A stretch of DNA of 64,000 bases from an uncultured Phycisphaerales bacterium (lineage in GTDB: Bacteria; Planctomycetota; Phycisphaerae; Tepidisphaerales; Tepidisphaeraceae): NCBI GenBank assembly GCA_963755915.1, contig CAVWLP010000002.1:4448001-4512000 (forward strand). Direction: 5' to 3'. This document shows, in pieces, positions 16,595 to 63,159 of this stretch (positions are counted from its first letter, which is position 1; every line of letters begins with the position of its first letter). The notes beneath the pieces are model-generated. The model did no database searches, was not told where the DNA came from, and worked only from the letters and a program-made list of their open reading frames with translations. Both the position numbers and the translations under genes were made by a program.

Positions 16595-17166
16595 TTATTC
16601 TTTGGGCGCTTCGGGAGAATTCTCGGCGGCGGGCTTTTCGTCAGCCGGTTTCGATGCCGCATCTTCAGGCTTGGTCTTCTTCAGTGCCCGGCCGGCGAAT
16701 TCGTGGCGGCGCTGGTTGCGTTTTCGGCGGAGGCCGGCACTGCGGCGGACGGTGCCGCGGGGGACGTTTTCCTCGGTGAGGAGCTGGAGGAGGACGAGCG
16801 ACCCACCGTCGCCGATGCGGAAATCGCTCAGCTTGATGATGCGGGTGTAGCCACCGGGACGATCGGCGAATTTGGGGGCGATGTCGGTGAAGAGTTTCTG
16901 GACAACAGTTTGGCCGGTGAATTCCTGGTCTTCATCGGTGAGCCGGCGGTCCTGAAGCACGGAGATGACCTTGCGGCGGCCACCAGGGTGTTGCGGCGGG
17001 CGAGGGTGATGAGCCGCTCAGCCATGGCGCGGACTTCCTTGGCCTTGGGAAGCGTGGTGCGGACTTTTCCGTGCTCAAAAAGGCTCTGGCAGAGATTGCG
17101 GCGGATGGCCTTGCGGTGATCGGAGTCAACGCTGAGCTGGCGGCCGAAGATTCGATGGCTACTCAT
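16595..17166 (-). CDS. rplQ: 50S ribosomal protein L17 (apparent frameshift near 16978)
   Basis: HRKAIRRNLCQSLFEHGKVRTTLPKAKE joined to KLFTDIAPKFADRPGGYTRIIKL. Confidence 0.95.
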
Positions 17167-17219
17167 GGCTGGTACCTGATTTCAATTCCAAATCTAAACG
17201 ATACTGATTACCCGCGTGA

Positions 17220-18338
17220 TTACTCCGTAGTGGACGTATCCGCTGCGCCGCTGGGCTGGGGCTCGTGGCCACCGGGGGCGGTCTCTTCGGTTTCGTCGTC
17301 CTCGTCGTCGTCGGGCATGGTTGCAGCGTTCTGCGGGGCGGCGTCGAGATCCATGCCAAGGCTCAGGCCCAGGTCGGCCAGCTTGCGCTTGACCTCGCGG
17401 AGGCTGGTCTTGCCGAAGCTGCGGACCTTGAGCAGATCCGAATCGGTCTTCTTGACCAGATCGCGCACCGTGGTGATCTTGGCCGATTCCAGGCAGTTGT
17501 TGGCTCGGACGGACAGATCCAGCTCCTGGATCGTCATGTTCAGCTTCTGCTGGAGATCGGGGTCGATCATCGCCTTGGTTGGCGTCGCGAAGTGCGGAAA
17601 TGGCGTCGTCGTTGGCGGTTTCGGTGCCCAGTTCGAAGTACTGGACGAAGGGGTTGAGGTGCTTGCGGAGAATCTTGCTGGCTTCGACCAGCGCCATTTC
17701 CGGAGTGAGCGTTCCGTTGGTCCAGATTTCGAGGATGAGGCGGTCGTAGTCGGTCTTCTGGCCGACGCGGGCGTCTTCCGTGGCGTAACGCACGCGGGTG
17801 ACGGGGGAATAAATGCTGTCGACGGCGATGAGCCCGATTTCCTGCTCCTCAATGTCGGCGATGTTTTCGGCGGCGGTGACGTAGCCGCGGCCCTTGGAGA
17901 CAGTCAGCGACATCTCAAAGGGAAGGTCTTCAGTGAGGGTGGCGATGACAGGTCTTTATTGACGATGGTGATCGACGGGTCGGACTCGATCATGCCGGCG
18001 GTGATGGCGCCGGCCTTGTTGGAGGTGAGCTTCATCTCCTTGTCGTCGTCGCTGTCGAGTTTCACGACGAGGCTCTTGACGTTGAGGATGATGTCGGTGA
18101 CGTCTTCCATCACGCCGGGGAGGCTGGAGAACTCGTGCTCCGCGCCCTTGAGGCGGATATGGGTGACGGCGGCGCCTTCAAGTGAGGAGAGGAGGATCCG
18201 CCGAAGGCTGTTGCCGACGGTGGTTCCAAATCCGCGTTCGAAGGGCTCGGCGACGAACTTACCATAGGTGTCAGTCGATACCTGCTCGTCGCGAACGACG
18301 CGCGAGGGCAATTCCAATCCACGCCAACGAATTCTCAT
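17220..18338 (-). CDS. rpoA: RNA polymerase alpha subunit (apparent frameshifts near 17950 and 17595)
   Basis: [52 protein letters not shown]. These motifs span three frames. Confidence 0.96.
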
Positions 18339-30780: not shown

Positions 30781-31446
30781 CTATTCTTCCACTTTCTTGA
30801 CGCGAGCCGTGATGGACTTACGAACAAAAAGGACGCCGCCGTTGGGTCCGGGCAGGCATCCTTTGATCAGCAGCAGGTTGTTTTCTTTGTCGATCTTAAC
30901 GAGGGGATGATTTCGAACGGTGACCTGGTCCATGCCCATATGGCCCGCCATGCGGACGCCTTTTTTGGGCTTACCACACTGACCGCGCCACGTCGCTCTC
31001 GAGGCGATCGAGCCGGGCGAGCGATGCTTTCTTTCCGTTCCGTGCGACGCCGGCTGGCCGCCGAAATGGTGGCGCTTCATCACACCGGCCGTACCCTTGC
31101 CTTTGCTGGTACCGATGACGTCGACAAACTGCACGTCATTGAACAGATCCACTTTCACTTCCGCCCCGGGCGCCAGATCGGTCGCGTCCTTCAACCGGAT
31201 CTCGCGGAAAAACCGCTTGGGCCCAACCCCCGCCTTGGCTGCATGCCCAATCAGCGGCATCCGGCTCAGCTTCGCCTTCGTGTCTTTATAGCCAAGCTGC
31301 ACCGCGTTATAGCCATCGGTGTCAACCTTCTTCACTTGCGTCACATGGCATTGCCCGCCCTGCACGACTGTAACGGGGACAACGCTCCCCTTCTCGTCAT
31401 AGACGCGGGTCATGCCGATTTTGGTTCCAAGTAGTGCCGGCGTCAT
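30781..31446 (-). CDS. rplC: 50S ribosomal protein L3
   Basis: GTKIGMT; DGYNAVQ; SKGKGTAGVMKRH; MAGHMG. Confidence 0.98.
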   Translation of the reverse strand: MTPALLGTKIGMTRVYDEKGSVVPVTVVQGGQCHVTQVKKVDTDGYNAVQLGYKDTKAKLSRMPLIGHAAKAGVGPKRFFREIRLKDATDLAPGAEVKVDLFNDVQFVDVIGTSKGKGTAGVMKRHHFGGQPASHGTERKHRSPGSIASRATWRGQCGKPKKGVRMAGHMGMDQVTVRNHPLVKIDKENNLLLIKGCLPGPNGGVLFVRKSITARVKKVEE

Positions 31447-31471
31447 GGCCGTAACCTTTCGCTCTTATCCA

Positions 31472-31540
31472 AGTGCCGCCGGTGTCCTCACCGGCGGAAT
31501 TCGCAGTCCAAAAACCGCCGGTGAGGACACCGGCGGCACT
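31472..31540. repeat. REPIN-like element with a 26-bp perfect inverted repeat
   Basis: AGTGCCGCCGGTGTCCTCACCGGCGG at 31472-31497 and its reverse complement at 31515-31540. Each arm is itself a hairpin. Confidence 0.8.
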
Positions 31541-31560
31541 GAAGTGCGAAAACTCTCCGA

Positions 31561-31611
31561 GACACGCGGCCCTTTTCAGGGCATTTGGGTTCTTGGTTGA
31601 ACCCCACGGTC
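31561..31611 (-). ncRNA. Candidate structured cis-regulatory RNA (three-way junction) upstream of rplC
   Basis: Minus strand GACCGUG-GGGUUC-aaccaa-GAACCC-aaau-GCCCU-GAAA-AGGGC-CGCGuGUC. Confidence 0.45.
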
Positions 31612-31618
31612 TAGCAAC

Positions 31619-31644
31619 AAAAAACGCTCCTTAAATCAGGAGCG
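31619..31644 (-). terminator. Intrinsic terminator or attenuator directly after rpsJ
   Basis: Minus strand CGCTCCT-gattta-AGGAGCG-TTTTTT. Confidence 0.7.
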
Positions 31645-31661
31645 TGTATCAATTAAAAAAA

Positions 31662-31970: not shown

Positions 31971-32036
31971 ACTGTTCTCGCAAACGTCTTTTGCTTCCTT
32001 AACCGCTTCCTTTTATTCCTTCAGGAAGGACGAAAC

Positions 32037-32064
32037 AGTTTACGGACGAGCTTTGGGTTGTCAA
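32037..32064 (-). promoter_or_regulatory. Sigma70 promoter of the S10 operon
   Basis: TTGACA-N16-TAAACT on the minus strand. Confidence 0.7.
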
Positions 32065-32131: not shown

Positions 32132-34371
32132 CTAACGCATCCCGGGCACTTCCCCCGATTGCACATGCAACCATCCCATCCAACGAAGCAAAAAATACTC
32201 ATTGAACGGCTGATCATCCGTCATAATCACCCGCTCACCCGGAGTCGGCAAAGCCCTGAAATCAATCTCCCTCTTTAAAACGTGGTCAAGATAGCCCGCC
32301 GCGTCCTCCCCATTCGACCATTCCAGAAGATCCGTCCTGGCACCCTCCGGCATCCGGGCCGCGACCTCTTCCCCATCCAGCTTTGGAATCGGCTCCATCG
32401 AGCCCAGCATATGCAATCCCTGCGCTTCAATCGGCAAAAATCCTCGCACGTACGGAAACGATTCCCGGAACGAGCGAATAATCGCCAGCGCCGTCGCGTT
32501 GATCCCGCCCGGTAACCACATCTGCACGATCCCATTCCGGTTCAAATCCTGCTTCGCCAGCGAATAAAACTCTGTCGAATACAAAAGACTCGATCCAGCC
32601 GCCTCAATCGGCGGTGGTGGATCGACCACGATCACGTCAAATTTTCGCCCGCAGCGCCGAAGATACCGCCTGCCATCGTCGATGATAATGTGCCCATTCG
32701 GGTTGCTCAGACATTTATCCGCATCCGCATGATAATAACCAAACGCCTGCGGCACTGCCGGAACCAGCTCCACCGCGCTGGTATCAATATTCCATGACAG
32801 CGCCGAGCGATACGTCGTTCCCATCCCGAAACAAATCACCAGCGTCGATTTCGCCGGACCTTCATGCAATCCGAGCGGCAAATCCACCATGAATTTTGTG
32901 ATCGGCGTCAGGATCGTCATCCCCACTCCGTTGACCAGCAGGATTTTCCCCATACCACTCCCGCCCGAAAGAACCGTCGCCGCGTAATCCCGCCGGATCA
33001 CGCAACCCGGGTCAGTCTCGCGGTACATCCACTCCGCATCATGCGAAAAAAATAGCGTGAAACCCACCTCGGCAACCAATGCCGCCGTCAACCCCACCCT
33101 CACCGGCCCAAAACGGGAACCGCGATGCCCAATCCAATACACCACAAACGGCATCCCGAGCAAAATCAGCGCCCACCGCTCGCTGATATAGGGTAAAAGC
33201 AGATACCCACCGGCCAGTGGCCCCAGAATGCACCCCACCACATTAACCGCATAGGCCTGCCCCGCGCGCCGCGGCCGGCCCGATGCATATCGATCGATCA
33301 GGCTCGGCGTCAGGTAGCCCAATACCGCGCAAAACGGACAGATGCTCGCCAGCAACACAATATCGCTCGAAAGATCCATCGTTCCCGCGCGGGAGCTTAT
33401 CACCACCACTCGCGGATCATTCACCAGCACCGGCAAAAATACCGTGAAGCCAAGGGCAACGAGCAGTGTCCCATATGAAAGCACCCGACGTCGCGAAATA
33501 CCCCGCCGATAAAGCCACGATCCCAAAATGTCGCGCCCAAATAGGTAAAAACAACGGACGCGAACGAATACACCTCCGTTCCCAGCAGCGGCGTAAACGC
33601 GCGAGACCACACCACCTCCATCGCCATCGACGCAAAACCTGTCGAAAACAGCACCGCCCGGATAACCCCGTCCGGCAGCACTTCCGCTGATTTAGGCACG
33701 TTGAGCCTGACCTGCGCTTGCGGAAATGTCTTAACTTCACGCCGAGACCTCACTCCCAGCCAAACGCTGATCGCCGTGATGATGAAATTTCCCCCCGCCG
33801 CTACGCACAGCGTGCCATGAAACCCAAATAGCTCGACCAGCGCCACGGCCGTCGCCAGCGTGCCGCACATCGCTCCCAGCACGTTGGCCAGGTAGAGAAA
33901 GCTGAAGCTGCTGTTGTTGCCCTCCACCCGTTCCCGGATGTACGCCATCATGAACGGAAACGTCGTCCCCATGCAAAAGCACCAGGGAAGAATCGATATC
34001 GCCACCGCCAGCGCCGACAGCAGCAGATATCCCGAGGAATTCATTTGCCCTGCCGGAAGCAGAATTCGCTCGCACACGTCGAACAGCTTTGGCGCCGCGA
34101 ACGCTCCCACCCCGATCAGAAACTCCGTCGCGCCGTAAAAGATCGCGGCCGACAATCCAGTTCGTTCAACCAGCCACGCGATCGACCGCCCCCCCCACCA
34201 CGATCCAACGGCCAGCCCGAGCATGAATACCGAAAGGACGACGGACAGCACCGGCGTAATGATCCCGAACGACGCGAATGCCAGCCGCGCCCACACGACC
34301 TGATACACCAGCCCCGAGAACCCCGATATAAAAAACAGAAGGAAAAGGATCGCCCGCCAGTATCGAGTCAT
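32132..34371 (-). CDS. Fused MFS-like membrane domain and spermidine-synthase-like domain (apparent frameshift near 33527)
   Basis: FISGFSGLVYQVVWAR; YLANVLGA; VICFGMGTT; VEL; DDGRRYL; FDVIVVDP. Confidence 0.88.
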
Positions 34372-35761: not shown

Positions 35762-35863
35762 TTACCGCCTTTTCGCTTTCCTAAACCTCCCAGTTTATCC
35801 AGTTTGTTGCGGACTGTTACCTTTTGTACCGCAGGTCCCCGCCGAAAAAAATTCTCCCGGCGA

Positions 35864-36979
35864 TCACTTCGTCACCCAGCACGCTGCCAGATGATTGGGC
35901 TTTCCATCTTTCATTTCCAGCATCGGAACTTCCGTCGCGCATTTGCGCAGCACGCGAAACTTTTCCGCCCCACTGCTCACCTCCATCGTCCCTCCAAAAT
36001 CCGCGACGCGAAGCGAAATCGTCCGGCTGGTCCCCTGCTGAGAAATATTCACAATCGCGTTCTGATCGGCCGTAGCCGCCCCCGCGCGTTAGTGGGCACC
36101 TCGGATGAAACGGACACCCGCTCGGCGGATTCGTCGGCGACGGCACCTCGCCCCCCAGCACAATCCGCTCCCGGCTGCGCCGCGGATCCGGCTCCGGCGC
36201 CGCCGACAACAGCGCCGCCGTATACGGATGCTTCGGATTCGCATAAAGCTCCCGCGCCTCCGCCCTCTCGACGATCCGCCCCAAATACATCACCGCCACG
36301 TCATCCGAAAAATGCTCCACGACAGCCAGGTTATGCGCGATAAACAAATACGCGATCCCCCGCTCCGCCCGCAGATCGGCCAGCAGATTGAGAATCTGGC
36401 TCTGAATCGAAACGTCCAGCGCCGACACCGGCTCATCGCACACAATAAAGTCCGGCGAAAGCGACAGCGCCGCGCAATCCCGATCCGCTGCCGCTGCCCC
36501 CCCGAAAACTCGTGCGGATATTTGTTCGCATCCCCCTCATCCAGCCCCACGCGCCGCAGCAGGGACGCCACCATCGCCCGCTTCTCCTCCCCGCGGGCGA
36601 TTTTGTGCACTTCGATCGGCTCGCCGATGATATTCCCGACGCGCATGCGGGGATTCAAACTGCTCACCGGATCCTGAAAAATGATCTGCATCCGCCGCCG
36701 CATGTTGCGAAGCGCTTCGCCGCGATAGGCGAGAAAATCATGCCCGTCGTATCTGATCGAGCCCGACGTCGGAGGAATAAGCCGCAGGATCGACCGCCCC
36801 ACCGTCGTCTTCCCACACCCGCTTTCGCCGACAAGGCCCAGCGTTCTGCCGCGGTGGACGTCGAACGACACGCCGTCAACCGCTTTCACCCAGCCGACCG
36901 TTCGCGAAAAGATTCCGCGCTTGATCGGGAAATAAGTTTTGAGGTCGCGGATTTGCAGCAGCGGTTCGCCGTTGTTCAT
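35864..36979 (-). CDS. oppF: Oligopeptide ABC transporter ATPase, OppF/DppF-like (apparent frameshifts near 36470 and 36080)
   Basis: [37 protein letters not shown]...ACW. Confidence 0.9.
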
Positions 36980-42199: not shown

Positions 42200-43195
42200 T
42201 TAAATTTTGGCCGCCTCGCGCCTGGGATCAAAAGCATCCCGCAATCCGTCTCCGACGAAATTGAGCGCCAGCAGCGTCACGCCTAGCAGAGTACACGGAA
42301 AAAGCAGGAGCCACCAGCAGGAGGCCATCGGGCCCAGCGCCAACGTGAGGCCGTCGCTGGCGAGAGAACCCCAGGTGGGAAGGGGCTTTTGGATGCCGAT
42401 GCCAAGGAAACTGAGGAGCGATTCCTGCAGGATCGCCTGGGGGACCGTCAGCGTCGCGTAGACCGTGATCGGGCCGATGAGATTGGGGAGCAGATGGCGC
42501 AGGAAAATCCGGTGGCTGGGGGCGCCAGCCGCGCGGGCAGCCTCGATAAAGGGGAGGGTACGCAGCGACAGCACCTGGCCGCGAATGACGCGGGCCATTG
42601 TCAGCCAGCTCACCAGGCCAATCGAAAGAAACAGCACCACCAGGTTCGCCGCCATGCTCGAATGGAGAAGATTCCCCAGCGGCGTCTCCATCGCGAATTT
42701 GAAGAGGATCACGAGCAGGATATAGGGCAGTGCGTAGAGGATGTCGACGATCCGCATGAGCAGGGAATCGATCCATCCGCCGCGATAACCGGAAATGAGT
42801 CCGACGCTGACGCCAAGGGCGACGCTGATCGCCGCGGCGGCCAGGCCGATGGTAAGGCTGATGACTCCGCCGGCCAGGCATTGGCCCAGAAGGCTCTGGC
42901 CAAGTTTGCTCGTGCCGAAGAGAAGCCAAAGCGAGCGAGTCTGGGGAGCAAGCAGGGCGGCGTCGGTGCGCTGCTGGTCGTAGTAGAGAGAAGAGGAGGA
43001 GCTGAGGGTCCAGGGCAGGGTGATGATGCAGGCGCCGAGTAGAATCGCCAAGACCGCCCCGCCGATGGAAATCCGAAATCCGAAACCAGAATGACGAATC
43101 AAATTCGAAATCCGAATGACCGAATGACGATCGCCCAGTCGGATTTCGACATTCGGGTTTGATTCGTCATTCTGGTTTCGGATTTCGGGTTTCAT
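42200..43195 (-). CDS. Peptide ABC transporter permease, OppC-like (copy 1), with repeat-derived N-terminus
   Basis: ARVIRGQVL; FIEAARAAG; RHLLPN; GDGLRDAFDP. Confidence 0.92.
   Translation of the reverse strand: MKPEIRNQNDESNPNVEIRLGDRHSVIRISNLIRHSGFGFRISIGGAVLAILLGACIITLPWTLSSSSSLYYDQQRTDAALLAPQTRSLWLLFGTSKLGQSLLGQCLAGGVISLTIGLAAAAISVALGVSVGLISGYRGGWIDSLLMRIVDILYALPYILLVILFKFAMETPLGNLLHSSMAANLVVLFLSIGLVSWLTMARVIRGQVLSLRTLPFIEAARAAGAPSHRIFLRHLLPNLIGPITVYATLTVPQAILQESLLSFLGIGIQKPLPTWGSLASDGLTLALGPMASCWWLLLFPCTLLGVTLLALNFVGDGLRDAFDPRREAAKI
43068..43193. repeat. 126-bp heptamer-based palindromic element inside the oppC 5' end
   Basis: 36-bp arms at 43068-43103 and 43158-43193 are inverted with 1 mismatch and built of GAAATCC/GAATGAC-like units. 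Confidence 0.85.
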
Positions 43196-60707: not shown

Positions 60708-60735
60708 AGAGACGAAGCGGATTATACGGTCTTTC

Positions 60736-60860
60736 CCCCTCGTCCGGTACTCCGGGAGAGGGCAGGGGTGAGGGCCTCGGAAAAAATCTCCTCGCACCCA
60801 CGGCCCTCACCCGCGCGGACTTCGTCCGCTTGCCCTCTCCCGGAGTACCGGGCGAGGGGA
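60736..60860. repeat. Inverted pair of CCCTCACCC...CCCTCTCCC-type repeats
   Basis: Arm 60736-60776 is inverted relative to 60802-60860. The right arm carries an extra GCGGAC-TTC-GTCCGC hairpin. Confidence 0.8.
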
Positions 60861-60873
60861 AAAGAGGGGATGT

Positions 60874-61926: not shown

Positions 61927-63159
61927 ATGGAATCGCATCTTTTTCAGGATTTGACGCTGATCTTTCTGGCGGCGGTGGCCGGAGGGATTTTGGCGTGGCT
62001 GGTGAGTCTGCCGTTGATCATCGGATTTGTGATCGGGGGGATCATCATCAGCCCGTTTACGCCGGGGATTCGGCTGCATGATGTACATACGTTCGAGGAG
62101 ATGGCGGAAGTTGGGGTCGTTCTGCTGATGTTTTCGGTGGGGGCGGAGTTTTCGCTGGAGGAGCTGCTGAGCGTGAAGTGGGTGGCGGTGGTGGGAGGGT
62201 CGCTGGGGATTGCCATCATCATCGGCACGACGCTGGGGATCGGACATCTTCTGCACTGGACGATGAACCAGTCGCTAGTGGTGGGGGCGACGGTTTCGGT
62301 GGCCAGCACGATGGTGCTGGCGCGCGTGCTCCAGGAGCGCGGAGCAATGGGGACTTCGTATGGCCGGGTGATGATCGGCATCACCCTCTTCGAAGATCTG
62401 GCAGTGGTTCTGATCACGGTCGTCCTTCCCGCGTTCGCGGGGACGGATGCGGACCGGTTTACCAAGGCCGCCTGGACGCTGGGCAAAGCGGTCATCCTGC
62501 TGATTCCCCTGGCGATTCTGACACGGACGCTGATTCCGCGGCTTCTGCGACTGATCCGCCGGACGAAGGACCAGGAGCTTTTTCTGCTGACGGCGCTGGC
62601 GATCTGCCTGGGGACGGCCGCCCTTTCGACGGTCGCGGGGTTTTCGATGGCGCTGGGGGCATTTTTGGCGGGATTTTCCATCAGCGGTGCGAAGGACCTC
62701 GATGAGGCCCATCACAGCCTGCTGCCGCTCCGGGATATTTTTGTGGCGCTATTTTTCGTTTCGCTGGGAACGCTGATCCAGCCGGCGATTTTGATGCGGA
62801 GTCTGGGTTTGCTGGGGGTGATGCTGCTGCTGATCGTGCCGGGGAAATTTATTTCCTGGGCGATCGTGGTGAGGATTTTTGGATATCCGACGAAGACGGC
62901 TATCGGCGTGGCGGCGGGATTGACGCAGATCGGCGAGCTTTCGTTTGTCGTGGTCAAGGTCGCGCGGGATGCAGGAATGGTGGGAGACGAGGTGTTTAAT
63001 GCGACGGTGGCGGCGTCGCTGATTTCGATTTTTATCAATGTGTTTGTGACGTGCGCGGCGCTGAGATTTGTGGAAGGGAAGAGCGCCAATGTCACTGTAA
63101 GAGGGCCCTCACCCCAACCCTCTCCCGGAGTACCGGGCGAGGGGGTAAGCTCGAATTAA
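61927..63159 (+). CDS. Cation:proton antiporter, CPA2 family
   Basis: [53 protein letters not shown]. Confidence 0.92.
63104..63145 (+). repeat. CCCTCACCCCAACCCTCTCCC-type repeat inside the CPA2 3' end
   Basis: GGCCCTCACCCCAACCCTCTCCCGGAGTACCGGGCGAGGGGG; same family as 60736-60860. Confidence 0.8.

Follow-up and report, generated by a model that had tools for sequence, protein, structure and literature searches.

The window analysed here, 64,000 nucleotides (nt) of contig CAVWLP010000002.1 in the assembly of an uncultured Phycisphaerales bacterium (GCA_963755915.1; family Tepidisphaeraceae), contains the S10 ribosomal-protein gene cluster. On its minus strand, rpsJ, encoding S10 (NusE), is separated from rplC, encoding L3, by a spacer of 215 nt according to the list of open reading frames (ORFs). 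In transcript order the spacer contains a U-tailed hairpin of the intrinsic-terminator type, a compact RNA three-way junction composed of helices P1, P2 and P3, and an inverted doublet of a repetitive extragenic palindrome (REP) (Table 1). Comparative analysis indicates that the hairpin and the junction together constitute a new, well-supported structured RNA in the S10 gene cluster, confined to a family of soil planctomycetes. An initial annotation had described the same elements and proposed attenuation after rpsJ combined with a new ribosomal-protein leader controlling more than 20 genes. Indeed, Pfam searches placed more than 20 ribosomal and associated genes downstream on the strand of rpsJ and rplC; L4, L23 and L2 were confirmed in addition to S10 and L3, and rplC headed an array of same-strand genes reaching ~16595, which comprised ribosomal-protein genes, secY, map and rpoA.

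Table 1. Coordinates of the features in and around the rpsJ-rplC spacer, numbered from the first base of the window. SD, Shine-Dalgarno; MFE, minimum free energy.
Feature	Position	Strand	Basis or remark
Sigma-70-type promoter-like site TTGACA-16-TAAACT upstream of rpsJ	32037-32064	(-)	Score 10/12
rpsJ (ribosomal protein S10/NusE), 102 aa	31662-31970	(-)	ORF; Pfam Ribosomal_S10, E 1.3e-35
Intrinsic-terminator-like hairpin, 7-8 bp, 6-nt loop	31624-31645	(-)	Terminator scan, folding, covariation
U-tract UUUUUU (transcript) directly behind the hairpin	31618-31623	(-)	Sequence; T-rich in 65/82 relatives
Three-way junction	31561-31611	(-)	MFE and centroid folds, covariation, single copy, no Rfam match
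P1, one bulged U	31605-31611 with 31561-31568	(-)	Fold
P2, hexaloop AACCAA	31587-31604	(-)	Fold
J2/3, 4 nt	31583-31586	(-)	Fold
P3, GAAA loop	31569-31582	(-)	Fold
Purine-rich SD-like GGAGAG (31553-31558), then U-run element UUUUCGC (31546-31552)	31546-31558	(-)	
REP doublet (REPIN-like)	31472-31540		Arms 31515-31540 and 31472-31497
rplC Shine-Dalgarno region GCGAAAGG	31455-31462	(-)	Predicted paired with 31546-31552 at the base of the REP stem
rplC (L3)	30781-31446	(-)	ORF; Pfam L3, E 9.5e-15

The hairpin started 16 nt past the rpsJ stop codon and was reported by the terminator scan as 8 pairs followed by TTTTTGTTGC. In isolation it folded at -14.1 kcal/mol (z -5.7), a value equalled by 0 of 200 shuffled sequences, while the scan as a whole gave no enrichment of terminator-like sites (6 sites vs 3.0 +/- 1.5 expected). 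The U-tailed hairpin originally placed at 31644-31619 was recovered as a stem-loop at 31645-31624 with a U-tract reaching 31618, and both parts proved to be conserved across the family, with at least 5 T among the 8 nt behind the stem in 65 of 82 sequences. A G+C-rich stem-loop with an immediate U-tract on the transcribed strand, both conserved and located shortly past a stop codon, is the arrangement of known intrinsic terminators and attenuators. Unlike these, the hairpin lies inside a cluster that normally forms one operon, with no recognisable promoter behind it, and for this reason it must be leaky or bypassed.

The three-way junction was present in both the MFE and the centroid structure, whether folded in the context of the spacer or in isolation, and the MFE fold reproduced exactly the pairs of P1, P2 and P3 that the initial annotation had drawn between 31611 and 31561. 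In isolation the junction folded at -26.4 kcal/mol (z -3.8; 1 of 200 shuffles as good), and the whole 215-nt spacer folded at z -10.8. P1 stacks directly onto P2 and P3, leaving the sequence-variable J2/3 as the sole unpaired strand of the junction. The GNRA loop ascribed to P3 is present in the window as GAAA and is not conserved among relatives. Spacer positions 1-117, which hold the hairpin and the junction, were unmatched elsewhere in the 6.6-Mb genome; the junction is a single-copy element and not, as had been considered, a dispersed repeat.

To establish its distribution, the unit was followed through relatives by protein, pattern and model searches. A search with the S10 protein over 41 genomes returned 30 loci, 20 from the family of the window, Tepidisphaeraceae, and 10 from other families of the class. 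Hairpin and junction, identified by P2 as an anchor, were found between rpsJ and rplC in 20 of the 20 family loci (19 of 19 without locus L016 of genome G014, which is flagged as unpublished; the public locus L070 appears the same in the spacer), and the P2 anchor was found in none of the 10 rpsJ-rplC loci from other families. The conserved unit comprises ~95 nt: the terminator-type hairpin, the U-tract, a gap between hairpin and P1 of 9-31 nt (median 12) and the compact junction, within which P2 is a near-invariant hairpin, GGGUUC-ANCCAA-GAACCC, whose hexaloop is A-N-CCAA throughout.

An exact 19-nt P2 pattern, GGGGTTCAWCCAAGAACCC, was then searched in one genome per species for 185,579 species. 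It matched 86 loci, and 81 of these were located directly downstream of rpsJ in the same orientation. All 81 matched the covariance model R1 at E <= 5e-6, and 80 also showed rplC downstream, the remaining locus being too short to reach it. The five matches without rpsJ or rplC (L041, L072, L087, L108, L116) were lone P2-like hairpins with no P1 or P3, in number close to the ~9 matches that we estimate would arise by chance in 596 Gb. The records were labelled mostly Tepidisphaeraceae or Tepidisphaerales, otherwise Phycisphaerales, Phycisphaerae or Planctomycetota; they included Humisphaera and the genome of the cultured Fontivita pretiosa B-254 (L071). Two differently labelled bins (L048 and L110) are probably mislabelled, judging by S10 proteins 95-97% identical to that of the window. 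When R1 was run over 151 genomes of the class, it matched 18 of the 20 other family genomes with one match per genome, and the two family genomes that it missed held diverged copies on inspection. Outside the family it matched one of 130 genomes, weakly (E 0.006) and away from rpsJ, in a genome whose rpsJ-rplC spacer is 20 nt.

The initial annotation had proposed testing covariation in the regions upstream of rplC in relatives, and this revealed a conserved, covarying RNA structure in the family. Among 82 sequences aligned to the model, a procedure that biases the counts towards the structure, 97.1% of cells were paired and double changes were found at 16 of 24 pairs (158 cells). Double changes were seen at 7 of 7 pairs of the hairpin (98.1% of cells paired), 5 of 7 pairs of P1 and 4 of 4 pairs of P3. 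In a shuffle control on the same sequences, 0 of 500 reached any of the measures, and slid registers gave 33-54% paired cells. The same helices were recovered by RNAalifold on plain MAFFT alignments. P2 was invariant in the 82-sequence set, which had itself been picked by the P2 pattern; in 38 sequences found by the protein search or the model and not by the pattern, P2 was 100% paired and a compensatory change was seen once at each of 3 of its 6 pairs. Two further compensatory variants of P2, GGCUC/GAGCC and GGGGUC/GACCCC, were found. These results demonstrate that the junction is a real, conserved, covarying RNA structure.

As DNA, P2 reads as the perfect palindrome GGGTTC-N6-GAACCC and hardly varies in sequence, the appearance expected of an operator acting at the DNA level or of mere close relatedness among the genomes. 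Either explanation is extremely improbable given that compensatory changes keep the pairing in P1, P3, the hairpin and the P2 variants. Furthermore, G-U pairs were frequent (one P1 pair, for example, was U-G 18 times, and one P3 pair G-U 17 times), and these would be mismatches on the other strand; since they fit only the gene strand, the RNA is assigned to the mRNA. The nucleotides of P2 also remained identical while identity of the L3 protein fell to 56-63% within the set, and the sequence and length of the surrounding spacer varied freely among relatives.

Other conserved structures were noted at the corresponding position outside the family. The rpsJ-rplC spacers of other families measured 20-276 nt, and two loci of another family of the class (L019 and L024) shared a different conserved hairpin (GCGCGUGAGCC.GAUCGCGCG-like) in spacers of 129-138 nt. 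The gap between rpsJ and rplC may hold different RNA elements in different lineages of Phycisphaerae.

A comparison with known RNA families agreed with the earlier claim that the RNA is new. A cmscan search of window positions 20000-45000 against Rfam 15 at E <= 10 gave no match on the hairpin or the junction, the only hits being microRNA families on palindromes, and a scan of the loci of 20 relatives at E <= 1 gave one unrelated weak match. ARAGORN found no tRNA-like gene, and a tRNA-like element was rejected. The junction could in principle be a riboswitch-like sensor of a small molecule or a tRNA, being compact, conserved and located in an mRNA leader. We consider this very improbable. With only the four variable nucleotides of J2/3 unpaired, the junction offers little room for a ligand pocket; its invariant part is a hairpin stem and loop, as is typical of protein sites; no riboswitch family matched; and the downstream genes are those of ribosomal proteins only.

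Transcription of the cluster was addressed with promoter scans for the sigma-70-type consensus. In 16 of 20 family loci, the near-consensus site upstream of rpsJ in the window (Table 1) had a counterpart of the TTGACA-16-TAnnnT type, located 61-123 nt before rpsJ. No sigma-70-like match was found in the 215-nt spacer of the window, none within rpsJ plus 70 nt in any of the 20 family loci, and, from 200 nt before the rpsJ stop codon to P2, a site was found in only 2 of 80 loci, at inconsistent places. The earlier statement that the spacer holds no clear second promoter is upheld for the window, and relatives likewise show no conserved promoter of this type between rpsJ and rplC. Because the only conserved sigma-70-type promoter is upstream of rpsJ, rplC and the following genes probably depend on read-through of the hairpin.

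The canonical and conserved form of the hairpin and its U-tract, and the restriction of the scans to the sigma-70 consensus, leave room for another arrangement, in which the hairpin would efficiently terminate a monocistronic rpsJ transcript and the junction would simply form the structured 5' end of a separate rplC operon, whose promoter, of an unrecognised type, would overlap the end of rpsJ or the hairpin. We regard this arrangement as unlikely. The contrast between 16 of 20 loci with a near-consensus promoter for rpsJ and 0 of 20 within rpsJ plus 70 nt argues against it, as does the distance from hairpin to P1, since a gap of 9-31 nt is too short to hold a promoter. In addition, in one metatranscriptome run a contig spanned 31560-31736, bridging the 3' end of rpsJ, the hairpin and the junction, which is weak evidence for a continuous transcript; in a second contig of the same run, rplC and the junction were joined by a spacer that lacks the REP and exactly matches that of a congener. 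Depth profiles and uncovered stretches of the RNA-library contigs, and the small word shares of the sequencing runs (0.05-0.31), were not used for conclusions on expression level, habitat or termination.

Downstream of the rpsJ promoter, the rpsJ 5' untranslated region (31971-32064; upstream regions of L001-L021) contained a conserved pyrimidine-rich stretch, CGUCUUUCCCC-like, followed in many family members by a hairpin with the arms CCCC..UUGC and GCAA..GGGG. This region may be a second leader, for rpsJ itself.

The region between the junction and the rplC start was variable in length and contained one recurrent block. In the window, P1 is followed by the SD-like purine tract and the U-run element UUUUCGC, for which the family consensus is UUUUGUC. 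Of 82 sequences, 58 had a U-run followed by G/C-U-C at 4-24 nt (median 10) past P1. The shortest leaders (L079, L034, L046, L073) showed the order P1, SD-like tract, UUUUGUC and then, directly abutting, the rplC AUG; this suggests that, originally, a protein attached to the junction would have covered the ribosome-binding site. The U-run was considered as the tail of a terminator formed with the junction, and this was rejected because at 4-24 nt past P1 it is too far away for a canonical terminator. Visual inspection suggested that P1 might be extended (CCG/CGG) and that GAC/GUC pairings might form instead, neither of which was consistent across the genus, and a pseudoknot between the P2 loop and downstream sequence was rejected because complements of AACCAA and AUCCAA did not track the loop variant.

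Other relatives carried different hairpin-forming inserts and a second conserved domain between the U-run block and the AUG. The second domain was observed in long leaders (for example L036, L038, L066, L081, L114, L074 and L053) and comprised a hairpin GUCC-loop-GGAC, the motif GG.A.GAG, a variable hairpin and a near-invariant CUCCUCUGCC 10-20 nt before the AUG; these leaders had no obvious SD near the AUG, and the domain was absent from the genus of the window. In L039, L051, L056, L062, L071, L089 and L107 the leader stretch past UUUUGUC contained unrelated palindromic or satellite-like hairpin inserts. This stretch looks like a hot spot that tolerates self-folding insertions.

The unit is a conserved structured RNA in an untranslated region directly upstream of a ribosomal-protein gene, as ribosomal-protein leaders are. 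We favour, with confidence about evenly poised between acceptance and doubt, a model in which it is a new, lineage-specific (Tepidisphaeraceae) protein-binding cis-regulatory leader of rplC and the following genes, positioned behind a leaky terminator. According to this model, the unit would be part of an mRNA running from the rpsJ promoter into rplC and beyond, and the hairpin would end a fraction of the transcripts after rpsJ. Transcripts that read through would carry the junction, most likely as the binding site of a protein, for which the likeliest candidates are the downstream-encoded ribosomal proteins uL3 and uL4. Binding of this protein would lower translation initiation at rplC, an effect proposed because the SD-like purine tract and the U-rich element lie within a few nucleotides of the junction. 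In this model, partial termination and protein binding are inferred, as are the nature of the ligand and the influence on translation.

In the window, the layout downstream of the U-run element is altered by the REP doublet. The 26-bp inverted repeat of the initial annotation is present and perfect: its 26-nt arms, 31472-31497 and 31515-31540, are 100% complementary and separated by 17 nt, and the doublet folded at -68.5 kcal/mol (z -12.9). Spacer positions 118-193 matched ~25 other places in the genome. Each repeat unit consists of a palindrome of 22 nt and short flanks that are conserved; with up to 2 mismatches the family numbered 25 copies at 20 loci, of which 5 were inverted doublets with a spacing of 16-24 nt. 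The assignment to REPIN-type repeats is borne out to the extent that a dispersed REP family with inverted doublets exists; the doublet does not belong with the hairpin and the junction in a conserved three-part device. None of 10 same-genus loci, with spacers of 131-149 nt, contained it, and one relative (L067) had a decayed copy at the same site. Because it is absent from the 10 congeners and shared in decayed form with one relative, the doublet is a later, lineage-specific insertion of about 75-80 nt outside the conserved unit.

The family resembles known REP and REPIN sequences in being a short palindrome dispersed over extragenic sites, occurring both singly and as inverted pairs whose folds are long hairpins. 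It differs in its small size and in the surroundings of transposase genes: neither of the two Y1-transposase-like genes (PF01797) in the assembly (reported completeness 81%, contamination 8%) was flanked by the REP of the window (up to 6 mismatches). Other palindromes lie beside both PF01797 genes, and no association of this family with a REP-associated tyrosine transposase (RAYT) was found; the cognate RAYT gene may be missing from the incomplete assembly. One of the other palindromes, a set of perfect 19-20-nt palindromes of different sequence at positions 1357-1429 of L138 in the same genome, lies beside a Y1-transposase-like gene and may be the REP family belonging to it.

The doublet was inserted between the U-run element and the present SD, and its flanks would remain close together because it folds on itself. 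In the fold of the full spacer, the flanks UUUUCGC and GCGAAAG paired at the base of the REP stem, and the rplC SD is accordingly predicted to be paired; in the thermodynamic prediction (MFE and base-pair probabilities) 7 of its 8 nt had an unpaired probability of at most 0.13. The doublet is thus predicted to pull the SD into the base of its stem.

Alternatively, the unit may act on transcription or on the fate of the RNA and not on translation, which we hold to be fairly unlikely while giving it weight as a competing account. It could be a cis-acting RNA that modifies RNA polymerase, in the manner of put or EAR elements or by loading of Nus factors, so that downstream terminator-like hairpins in the ~15-kb operon are read through. 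It could also serve in mRNA processing or stability, defining the 5' end that cleavage leaves on the rplC mRNA and shielding it, so that the level of rpsJ mRNA is uncoupled from that of the remaining genes. Such roles would fit the geometry of the leader, as the junction is fixed relative to the hairpin (9-31 nt) and variable in its distance to the AUG (41-309 nt, measured from P2), and the region past the junction tolerates many hairpin-forming insertions in different lineages. The REP arm of the window is of interest in this respect: arm 1 alone would form a 10-bp G+C-rich hairpin followed by UUUUU in the transcript, resembling a strong terminator, although it was not listed by the terminator scan. 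The invariance of P2 likewise suggests recognition by a conserved machine. Against these roles, no similarity to known antitermination RNAs was found in Rfam, and spacer positions 1-117 had no 9-mer in common with the 700-900 nt preceding the 16S and 23S genes of the same genome, where a BoxA-type site would be expected; with no motif of at least 9 nt shared, a BoxA/Nus link was rejected. The conserved SD-like tract and U-run past P1, which abut the AUG in minimal leaders, point to translation.

A more speculative variant, to which we assign little probability, treats hairpin and junction as a conserved intra-operon gate without a described counterpart among ribosomal-protein operons. In this scheme rpsJ (NusE) would be set off from the rest of the operon by a leaky, constitutive terminator, and the junction, as a cis-acting RNA, would reprogram polymerases that have passed, by direct contact with RNA polymerase or by loading of a Nus-type complex. 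Reprogrammed polymerases would then ignore later terminator-like hairpins over ~15 kb. If true, the scheme would account for the finding that different lineages tolerate REP arms with U-runs, and many further palindromic inserts, immediately behind the junction.

Several observations weigh against the preferred model of a translational leader behind a leaky terminator. Being downstream of the hairpin, the junction cannot control termination there co-transcriptionally, and the two cannot form a classical attenuator switch. The distance of 41-309 nt between P2 and the rplC AUG means that simple steric occlusion cannot operate everywhere without the hairpin-like inserts or the second domain, and RNAalifold on 13 short leaders predicted no conserved structure that would hide the SD. 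The promoter test is limited to the sigma-70-type consensus, and the RNA-library contigs are weak support, being of low depth (2.6-2.9), from one run, possibly affected by DNA contamination and unable to show RNA ends.

Mimicry of rRNA, which is common though not obligatory in ribosomal-protein leaders, is also unsupported here. The initial annotation had suggested that the junction imitates the 23S site of uL4 or uL3; simple motif searches revealed no sequence resemblance to the 23S or 16S rRNA of the same genome, in which neither a P2-like hairpin, nor a C-G-closed ANCCAA loop, nor a GGUUC...GAACC stem was found. Searches of the rRNA with variants of P2, its loop and its stem returned only chance-level 5-7-mers. 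A GGAAAG loop in domain I of the 23S rRNA, similar to a segment of the leaders of some congeners, was judged to be SD-like and unconvincing.

A precedent for control of this gene cluster by RNA is the S10 leader of Escherichia coli, as described in PMC3616713. There, the L4-responsive leader precedes rpsJ and all genes of the operon and forms five hairpins; a terminator hairpin lies downstream of a hairpin needed for the action of L4, and one hairpin covers the S10 start codon. The two systems share the gene cluster and the combination of an RNA structure with an intrinsic terminator gating a long ribosomal-protein operon, and the E. coli leader is a precedent for uL4 as the regulator (PMC3616713). 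The element described here differs in lying between rpsJ and rplC, and in its order, with the U-tailed hairpin first and the three-way junction second. Because the presumed protein site is here downstream of the terminator and not upstream, terminator control of the L4/NusA type cannot work as it does in E. coli.

A candidate L4 leader of Archaeoglobi (Eckert and Weinberg 2020; Table 1 in PMC7247131) lies directly upstream of rplC, rplD, rplW and rplB. It resembles the present unit as a candidate leader directly before rplC and differs in being archaeal; the Rfam 15 search at E <= 10 yielded no match here. The main text of that survey reports an rplC-proximal L4 leader only for Archaeoglobi, and contains no mention of Planctomycetes, uL3 or uS10 (PMC7247131). 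A full-text literature search found, among the papers listed, no mention of an rpsJ-rplC element or of an rplC leader, and turned up no ribosomal-protein leader from Planctomycetes.

Textbooks present the S10 operon as a classic example of autogenous control. To our knowledge, regulatory RNA for this operon has so far been described in Gammaproteobacteria alone; little is known of the way in which other phyla balance these 20-plus essential genes, and almost no regulatory RNAs have been described in Planctomycetota. The motif reported here occurs in ~80 species, as a single copy per genome in a fixed genomic context, and each of its four helices shows covariation. Its placement is unusual, inside an operon and behind a conserved terminator that follows the S10/NusE gene. 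The near-invariant P2 hairpin provides a small, concrete RNA target for binding and structural work, and cultured members of the family exist. The REP insertion in the present genome amounts to a natural test of the leader's tolerance of disruption.

Several features of the window lie apart from the spacer. The upstream neighbours of rpsJ by Pfam are hisD and a gene for a membrane protein with a spermidine-synthase-like domain, not tuf. Some genes appear split into overlapping or adjacent ORFs with complementary Pfam matches, namely rpoA (17194-18338), rplQ (16595-17129), an ATP-binding cassette (ABC) ATPase (35817-36979) and the region 32132-34371, which suggests indel errors in the assembly. 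An inverted repeat with 49-nt arms at 43068-43193, built from short repeats of the GAAATC type, gave false microRNA matches, and a similar GAAATC-repeat hairpin is inserted in domain I of the 23S rRNA gene of the same genome, at ~nt 285-345 (L117). A second family of palindromic repeats (CCCTCTCCCGGAGTACCGGGCGAGGGG-like) is represented by three copies, in direct and inverted orientation, at 60724-60865 and 63104-63156.

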